Of a stretch of 54,361 nt of DNA, positions 23,782 to 24,069 are shown piece after piece. The notes under the pieces were generated by a model that was not told the DNA's origin, searched no databases, and saw only the letters and a program-made list of their open reading frames with translations. The translations under genes were made by a program, and so were the position numbers. Origin of the DNA: a virus (taxonomy: Duplodnaviria; Heunggongvirae; Uroviricota; Caudoviricetes); the IMG/VR virus record IMGVR_UViG_2925919700_000001. One strand, 5' to 3'. Each line of letters begins with the position of its first letter. Position 1 is the first letter of the stretch.

Positions 23782-24069
23782 TTACCGCCGCAGCCGTTCC
23801 GGCTTCTTCCACTGGTAAGTATTTTTCACGCTCTCCCTCCGCTGTTGAGAACGGCGACGGCATGCCAGCAACTCAAGAACTCTGGTTCGTATGTTGCGCA
23901 TATCCACGCCGTTAAGCTCAATACCGTCACGGCGCATCACCTCAGTCACCACACGCGCGTAATTTTCAGCGGTGACTGTATCCGGCTGCGCGGCCTGTTC
24001 GTCAGCCAACTGGCTGATTCCACCAGCACAGCGGATTAATCGCAGTATTTCAGATTCGGTCATTATCAT
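23782..24069 (-). CDS. Hypothetical 95-aa protein translationally coupled to terS in the position normally occupied by terL
   Basis: ATGA overlap with the terS stop; not similar to the terL N-terminus found at 34695-35690. Confidence 0.4.
   Translation of the reverse strand: MIMTESEILRLIRCAGGISQLADEQAAQPDTVTAENYARVVTEVMRRDGIELNGVDMRNIRTRVLELLACRRRSQQRRESVKNTYQWKKPERLRR

Follow-up and report, generated by a model that had tools for sequence, protein, structure and literature searches.

The open reading frame (ORF) p95, found in a 54,361-nucleotide stretch of Caudoviricetes DNA (IMG/VR virus record IMGVR_UViG_2925919700_000001; hereafter the window), is almost certainly the last gene of the late packaging operon of an 11.3-kb satellite. 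The satellite is of the phage-inducible chromosomal island (PICI) type, is embedded in its helper prophage, and carries its own DUF1441 small terminase (TerS) next to p95. On what p95 does we are more guarded. We tentatively regard it as a generic accessory factor that helps to package or transfer satellite DNA, and we hold the best explanation as a whole at about even confidence. A prior interpretation, made from the letters of this DNA before any database was consulted (the sequence-only reading), had proposed that p95 is produced in stoichiometry with a TerS paralogue and interferes with or redirects helper packaging. That interpretation was right in seeing a gene of a satellite packaging module, and probably wrong about the action of p95. 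The features on which the assignment rests are as follows.

23782..24069, minus strand: p95 ORF, 95 codons, placed as the terminal gene of the satellite late operon; 93 amino acids from the conserved start at 24063; phrog_1561.
24066..24551, minus strand: satellite small terminase (DUF1441, 161 amino acids), whose stop overlaps the first p95 ATG.
23405..34704, minus strand: whole PICI-type satellite, with 11,286 bp between the cores.
23405..23411, minus strand: attR core, CTGGATG.
34698..34704, minus strand: attL core, CTGGATG.
34695..35690, minus strand: 5' part of the helper large terminase gene (terL), ATPase domain; cut at attL, it meets a stop codon inside the satellite.
22295..23407, minus strand: 3' part of helper terL, GpA nuclease domain; Pfam shows the nuclease domain only.

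Joining the flanks in silico at CTGGATG produced a 2103-nt ORF encoding a 700-residue TerL. Counting the stop along with the 700 residues, 696 of the 701 translated positions agreed with TerL of phage mEp460, as did 2084 of the 2103 nt of DNA. Because excision in silico restores an mEp460-like TerL, the helper terL is interrupted and not missing. The split falls exactly between the ATPase and nuclease domains. The satellite thus sits, co-oriented, precisely inside the GpA-family terL of an mEp460-like lambdoid prophage. The sequence-only reading had placed p95 where terL should be. This holds by synteny, as the stop of the helper terS and the start of its terL overlap by 1 nt; what does not hold is the absence of terL, which is split by the satellite.

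The window is Escherichia coli DNA. Strain C6 contains the region at 100% identity, and there the split terL halves flank the genes from int to p95. They are annotated there as 'missing C-terminus' and 'terminase gpA endonuclease subunit, missing N-terminus'. On the minus strand of C6, a prophage DUF1441 terS comes before this block, and a head-tail joining gene, portal, capsid, and tail genes come after it. At least 12 complete E. coli genomes also had the split-terL configuration, as did viral contigs L013-L015, L018, L019, L021, L024, and L025. Strain 3150 carries this island between cspD/yljB and clpS, with a p95 that is 97% identical and an integrase that is only 23% identical.

The junction of satellite terS and p95 reads ...AAA CAG GCA TGA TAA TGA CC... 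on the minus strand (also written ...AAACAGGC-ATG-ATA-ATG-ACC...). The first p95 ATG (24069-24067) overlaps the TGA stop of the upstream ORF to give ATGA, which confirmed the overlapping ORF of the sequence-only reading and placed it on the minus strand. Both the NCBI annotation of the identical genome and nearly all homologues favor a start at the third codon (MTESEIL, ATG at 24063), 2 nt past the terS stop. Either start codon would be compatible with translational coupling of terS and p95. The ATGA junction was identical in 29 of 29 DUF1441-context loci fetched. Several signs point to a late operon, namely the ATGA or 2-nt spacing after terS, a terminator-like hairpin downstream, and the lack of any promoter-like site between terS and p95.

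Codon analysis revealed synonymous variation across the whole p95 ORF, including the C-terminal motif, with the amino acids conserved. As synonymous changes occur throughout, the constraint acts on the p95 protein and not on an overlapping DNA site. The ratio of nonsynonymous to synonymous substitution rates (dN/dS) was 0.24 overall, 0.10 for codons 32-70 (the core), and 0.21 for the tail. Based on the synonymous variation with conserved amino acids and the overall dN/dS, the alignments identify p95 as a real gene under purifying selection.

We then surveyed the genomic context of p95 at 80 viral-contig loci and in several annotated genomes. In every context examined, p95 was the last co-oriented satellite gene, 0.2-1 kb from attR. 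The gene upstream was of several kinds: a DUF1441 terS with the ATGA overlap (29 loci), a Phage_Nu1-like terS (gaps of ~10 to 280 nt), the terL of capsid-forming PICIs (cf-PICIs; a gap of ~13 nt in E. coli, a 4-nt overlap in Klebsiella contig L086), rppA with a 280-nt spacer holding an inverted cos site, or a lambda gpI-like gene (gap of 8-19 nt). Despite these unrelated upstream genes, the p95 proteins of other satellites were 72-87% identical to that of the window. A variable segment of the tail (RRRSQQRRESAKN, RRRVEMYREKEKI, or RRRVQMYQEKEKI) had no one-to-one relation to the upstream context.

Among complete E. coli genomes, 1573 of 5426 (about 29%) carry the gene, in up to six copies. In comparison, a tblastn search of 50,697 phage records with p95 gave one match. 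The match fell in a 106-kb 'Klebsiella phage' record with sparse annotation, within a cf-PICI-like segment in which p95 lies directly after TerL and before another integrase. By these searches, the p95 family is confined to PICI-type satellites of Enterobacterales. These include the two best-studied E. coli PICIs. The EcCICFT073 homologue (C_RS07030, WP_000133413.1) is the last gene and adjoins phoQ; it is preceded by rppA at a distance of 280 nt and by the inverted cos2 at 65 nt. The EcCIEDL933 homologue (EDL933_RS08745, WP_000133425.1) directly follows terL with a 13-nt gap. In the region of cos2 and the p95 homologue of EcCICFT073 (L085, CFT073: 3298-3309 and 3374-3655), the non-essential cos2 faces cos1, and the two cos sites bracket rppA. 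In tandem satellites, p95 closes one element and the next integrase or a second p95 follows within ~1 kb (L081, 8001-8288 and 9242-9532; L086, 6968-7165 and then an integrase at 7507).

The p95 protein matches phrog_1561, a family of unknown function, with an E-value of 9.7e-51 (residues 3-95 against profile positions 1-93 of 93). A search of 5.8 billion proteins returned 859 clusters for the long form of p95; the whole family counts 1206 clusters. All cluster names were 'hypothetical' or 'prophage protein', and all taxa were Enterobacterales. Among 1.84 billion representatives at 50% identity, only 37 matched. The long proteins within this set were unrelated repeat proteins (SEA, TPR, and Listeria-Bacteroides repeats). 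A lead toward an ankyrin-like protein, raised by a DARPin match and by long proteins aligning over many stretches, was dropped once the latter proved to be these repeat proteins. Scans of p95 against Pfam, NCBIfam, and PADLOC at permissive E-values (E <= 5 for Pfam and PADLOC) gave no match, and searches of PDB chains by sequence and profile at E <= 10 gave chance matches only (DARPin, E 1.8; GatF, E 1.3).

The family comes in two sizes, a long form of 93 amino acids and a short form of 62-63. The short form lacks the N-terminal third and is common in Klebsiella, Enterobacter, Citrobacter, Raoultella, Pectobacterium, Rahnella, and others. Residues G49, R61, W87, K89, and P90 are invariant across both forms, and L52-N53-G54-x-D56, L68, R73, and Q76-R77 are nearly so. 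The C-terminal end is an invariant basic tail, Y-x-W-K-K-P-x-x-x-R-R. An AlphaFold2 model built from a diverse alignment had a predicted local distance difference test (pLDDT) score of 77.7, rising above 83 for residues 31-80. Its helices span residues 5-15, 34-47, and 54-82; residues 16-33 form a disordered linker, and the basic end is extended. No helix-turn-helix (HTH), winged-helix, or ribbon-helix-helix (RHH) fold was present in the model. Charge is unevenly divided, with a pI of 4.5 for residues 1-58 and 11.8 for residues 59-93. Taken together, the model describes a small protein of two parts, an acidic helical head and a long basic helix and tail. In protein P0263, encoded on a 3.6-kb E. 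coli contig, residues 1-46 of Fis are followed by the C-terminal half of a short-form p95, the two parts meeting at the pentapeptide LNGQD that both share. This chimera, seen in a single contig, is probably an assembly artefact or a rare recombinant beside a fis-integrated PICI.

The remaining satellite genes are consistent with its assignment. Three of them are placed as follows.

33295..34533, minus strand: satellite tyrosine integrase (Arm-DNA-bind_3 and Phage_integrase domains), P4-type.
25593..27506, minus strand: satellite fusion of a ClpP-like prohead protease and major capsid protein, 57% identical to that of the helper (helper copy at 18606-20825).
24862..25503, minus strand: satellite lambda gpI-like tail assembly protein, 84% identical to that of the helper (helper copy at 10034-10681).

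In order, the satellite carries int, a small HTH gene, Bro-N, an Icd-like gene, DUF4222, a D5-type primase, the single-stranded DNA-binding protein gene (ssb), the protease/capsid fusion, the gpI-like gene, cos, terS, and p95. The annotation of the identical genome adds a YlcI/YnfO gene on the opposite strand. Size and gene content are those of PICIs (~10-15 kb, a terminal tyrosine integrase, a replication module, and partial late genes). An AlpA-family regulator was sought; the 67-amino acid ORF beside int is annotated 'helix-turn-helix transcriptional regulator' and had no Pfam match at E <= 0.001. Neither terL nor a portal gene is present in the satellite, and the annotation of the stretch shows no lysis gene. 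With its own capsid fusion and gpI-like gene and neither portal nor terL, its gene set is intermediate between those of classical and capsid-forming PICIs. The capsid fusion and the gpI-like gene have a truncated tail-gene fragment between them.

The small terminase pair and the cos-like blocks bear on how the satellite might be packaged.

35690..36184, minus strand: helper terS (DUF1441, 164 amino acids), with the acidic tail ...EAGADDEEELQQEE.
24696..24776, minus strand: satellite cos-like block (cosQ/cosN-like), upstream of satellite terS.
28016..28096, minus strand: second satellite cos-like block, co-oriented, downstream of ssb.
36300..36400 (about), minus strand: helper cos-like block, upstream of helper terS.

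Satellite TerS matches Pfam DUF1441 (E 5e-36) and phrog_141, 'terminase small subunit' (E 2e-57). Translation probably begins at the ATG at 24551, for a protein of 161 amino acids, and not at the TTG at 24638. As the sequence-only reading had it, p95 is a satellite-encoded gene of the packaging module that directly follows a terS paralogue; the two TerS proteins share 67% identity across 151 residues. Their C-terminal tails differ. The helper tail carries 8 Asp/Glu in its last 20 residues, whereas that of the satellite (...KNDVVNEVAKQA) is neutral.

The ~80-bp block upstream of satellite terS (GGGTCCTCCCGGTG..CCTGCCACGGGGCGGGAGCG.CGCGGAAAAAGGCTAGTTTTTG...) is near-identical to the helper block, and its center resembles lambda cosN. 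We assigned the blocks as cos from this resemblance and from their position. The stretch between block and terS, in the position of cosB, has diverged between satellite and helper. Of the two satellite copies, only the one proximal to terS precedes a cosB-like region that resembles, though diverged from, that of the helper. Satellite TerS would read the satellite's own diverged cosB-like region, and helper TerL would cut at the cosN-like core common to both genomes. The simplest inference from this layout is a packaging strategy like the one used by pathogenicity islands of Staphylococcus aureus (SaPIs), with an own TerS, the helper TerL, and a common cosN. Packaging specificity in the window may therefore be explicable without p95. 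The neutral tail of satellite TerS raises the question of whether helper TerL is recruited through a TerS hetero-oligomer or through another protein.

For p95 itself, a packaging or transfer role is favored because two independent arrangements have the gene translated together with terminase genes, and in the others it ends the packaging operon. The protein would be made late, alongside the satellite packaging proteins, and its basic tail would act either on DNA or on some partner that all these satellites share. It would not be the specific partner or inhibitor of one kind of TerS. Our data suggest that p95 takes part in some step shared by PICIs whose TerS, TerL, capsid, and integrase otherwise differ, and that it is probably not strictly essential.

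Several points weigh against this proposal. The case for packaging comes from gene position alone, and tight spacing is in any event usual in phage late operons. Neither homology nor fold matching pointed to a function for p95. The upstream neighbor can also be a gpI-like tail-assembly gene and not a terminase, which weakens the terminase link and lets a role at the end of the element fit equally well. In addition, EcCICFT073 derivatives designated 'c1504-c1507::cat' still transfer at ~1e6-1e7 per ml (PMC10460865). The p95 homologue lies within c1504-c1507, and if it is disrupted in these constructs, whose boundaries are unverified (strain names only), it is dispensable in laboratory transfer. 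A second published observation also bears on whether p95 is essential: in EcCIEDL933, mutation of 'hypothetical gene 1792' in the packaging module severely reduced transfer. That module has two hypothetical ORFs, one of 60 amino acids between HNH and terS and the other p95, and the number 1792 may belong to either.

A DNA-binding p95 could instead act near the attP arm or the operon end, modulating excision and integration, int expression, or termination. We consider this doubtful, yet nearly as good an account as a packaging or transfer role, because the only constant of p95 is its position beside attR or attP. After excision, the predicted gene order is p95, hairpins, attP, and int. Whatever lies upstream, p95 invariably comes last, 200-1000 bp from attR, and it has a basic helix and tail. 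The DNA that follows the gene is also unusual.

23540..23781, minus strand: hairpin-rich non-coding stretch after p95, ~7 stem-loops; minimum free energy -90.7 kcal/mol, z -5.6.

The last stem-loop (23586-23571) is terminator-like and lies ~200 nt past p95. From its predicted folding, this strongly structured stretch appears to mark the end of the late operon. An Rfam scan of the satellite, hairpin stretch included, gave no match. Directly after the p95 stop, the motif CTnnnTGATATTyyCG recurs in satellites with unrelated integrases, and in EcCICFT073 it is repeated further downstream. Apart from this short motif, the downstream DNA was too divergent across loci for multiple alignment. Against a role at the end of the element, the p95 model lacks an HTH, winged-helix, or RHH fold, and PICI excision and induction have been attributed to AlpA and Int (PMC6092414). 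Furthermore, p95 is kept across integrases that are only 23% identical and use different att sites, which argues that it is not integrase-specific.

A more specific form of the packaging proposal seems unlikely. Here p95 would be a universal and satellite-specific factor of Enterobacterales PICIs whose YxWKKP..RR tail docks on a conserved acidic packaging surface, biasing the terminase or prohead toward satellite DNA. The surface may be the acidic C-terminal tail of the small terminase, which is present in helper TerS and lacking in satellite TerS. The EcCIEDL933 'hypothetical gene 1792' may be p95 on this account, with the caveat already given on its number. Were docking true, p95 would join Rpp and Ppi as a packaging-hijack protein of a third kind.

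Interference in the manner of Ppi or Rpp, the action closest to that put forward by the sequence-only reading, is quite unlikely. In this model p95 would bind helper TerS or mimic the TerL N-terminus, keeping the helper terminase from assembling on helper DNA and thereby favoring satellite TerS. The protein is indeed satellite-specific and co-translated with a terS paralogue, and the very acidic tail of helper TerS, lacking in satellite TerS, could be set beside the basic C-terminal 35 residues of p95. There is also a precedent, as pac SaPIs pair their own TerS with Ppi (summarised in PMC6739421). However, a near-identical protein occurs in capsid-forming PICIs after their own TerS and TerL, where there is no helper TerS to block. 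EcCIEDL933 carries a p95 homologue and leaves the titre and plating of its helpers HK106 and HK446 unreduced (bioRxiv 10.1101/2022.09.08.507074). When the EcCICFT073 genes after ori were cloned individually, only c1503 (rppA) cut lambda plaques, and deletion of c1503 restored plating, even though the element has a p95 homologue (PMC6739421).

Neither did p95 resemble the proteins that it would have to imitate. No BLASTP alignment was found to the N-terminus of the window TerL, as the sequence-only reading had noted, and the PDB chain library, in which the presence of Rpp entries is unconfirmed, gave no sequence match to Rpp structures. A partner of one TerS family should track that family. In contrast, p95 follows unrelated genes, and its variants mix freely among DUF1441, Nu1-like, Rpp, and TerL contexts without tracking the upstream gene. 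A TerS-specific interference role is therefore unlikely, and the stoichiometric TerS partner of the sequence-only reading is not borne out.

We regard it as very unlikely that p95 is accessory cargo, a moron for anti-defence, defence, or modulation of the host that is borne at the island's variable end. The flanks of cf-PICI packaging modules are variable and 'expected to encode immune systems' (bioRxiv 10.1101/2025.02.11.637232), and the c1504-c1507 interval of EcCICFT073 serves as a marker site. Nevertheless, p95 behaves like a core gene, occurring in classical, helper-embedded, and capsid-forming PICIs of many genera with a dN/dS of 0.10 in its core. It had no PADLOC match at the threshold given above, and at 62-93 amino acids it is short and without enzymatic or membrane features.

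Lastly, although p95 occupies the terL position relative to terS, the idea that it is the degraded N-terminus of a different TerL or a spurious ORF is refuted, given no alignment to helper TerL, no Pfam terminase match at E <= 5, no TerL among the 37 representative matches (whose only long proteins were the unrelated repeat proteins), stable lengths of 93 or 62-63 amino acids under purifying selection, and terL halves in the window that already rebuild a complete gene.

These results separate what is known from what is new. A PICI-type satellite in a helper-embedded configuration is known, and p95 belongs to an existing family already present in EcCICFT073 and EcCIEDL933. The GpA-type terL target, together with the missing attP motif of the known integrase clade, is a new site or variant. 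What looked like a 'missing terL' is the junction of an insertion and not a new packaging system. A satellite that splits terL forces its helper to await satellite excision before making terminase. The one late gene common to satellites that hijack packaging in quite different ways is p95, and any phenotype found for it would therefore indicate a step that all of them share.

Among known systems, the closest in configuration are the helper-embedded PICIs (HE-PICIs) of Tommasini, Mageeney & Williams (2023), which integrate in, and co-oriented with, the late genes of lambdoid prophages (bioRxiv 10.1101/2022.07.18.500453; PMC10111431). Like these, the window satellite excises precisely at an identity block of 7 bp (in silico) and has four zones (integration, Bro, replication, and late). 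It differs in its target, a GpA-family terL, whereas the published gene-A sites are Terminase_1:132 and :245 (PMC10111431). None of the 14 published HE-PICI sites is that of the window. The doubled TGTATTGC motif on both sides of the attP core, the signature of the HE-PICI integrase clade, had no copy in the satellite or its ends, even with 3 mismatches allowed for the doubled form. The element is thus HE-PICI-like by configuration, and its assignment to the TGTATTGC integrase clade is not supported by the motif.

The terminal ORFs of EcCICFT073 and EcCIEDL933 are like p95 in being 93 amino acids long, last before attR, 72-79% identical, and ended by YxWKKPERLRR. No function for either is described in the literature examined. 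Their upstream neighbors differ from one another and from that of the window, being rppA with an inverted cos2 in EcCICFT073, terL in EcCIEDL933, and an overlapping DUF1441 terS here.

As with Rpp, p95 is a small satellite-encoded protein in a packaging region adjoining cos (PMC6739421). The Rpp proteins (RppA/B/C) are 139-154 amino acids long, have a winged-HTH, TerS-like DNA-binding domain, and bind helper TerS (PMC6739421). In contrast, p95 has 93 residues and a three-helix AlphaFold2 model without wing or HTH, and in EcCICFT073 it is a separate gene beside RppA. The SaPI pair of TerS(S) and Ppi offers an analogy of position only, with a satellite's own TerS paralogue followed by a small protein; p95 is also found in satellites that do not interfere with their helpers. 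Finally, EcCICFT073 resembles the window satellite in having two cos sites, but those of EcCICFT073 are inverted and those of the window satellite are co-oriented.

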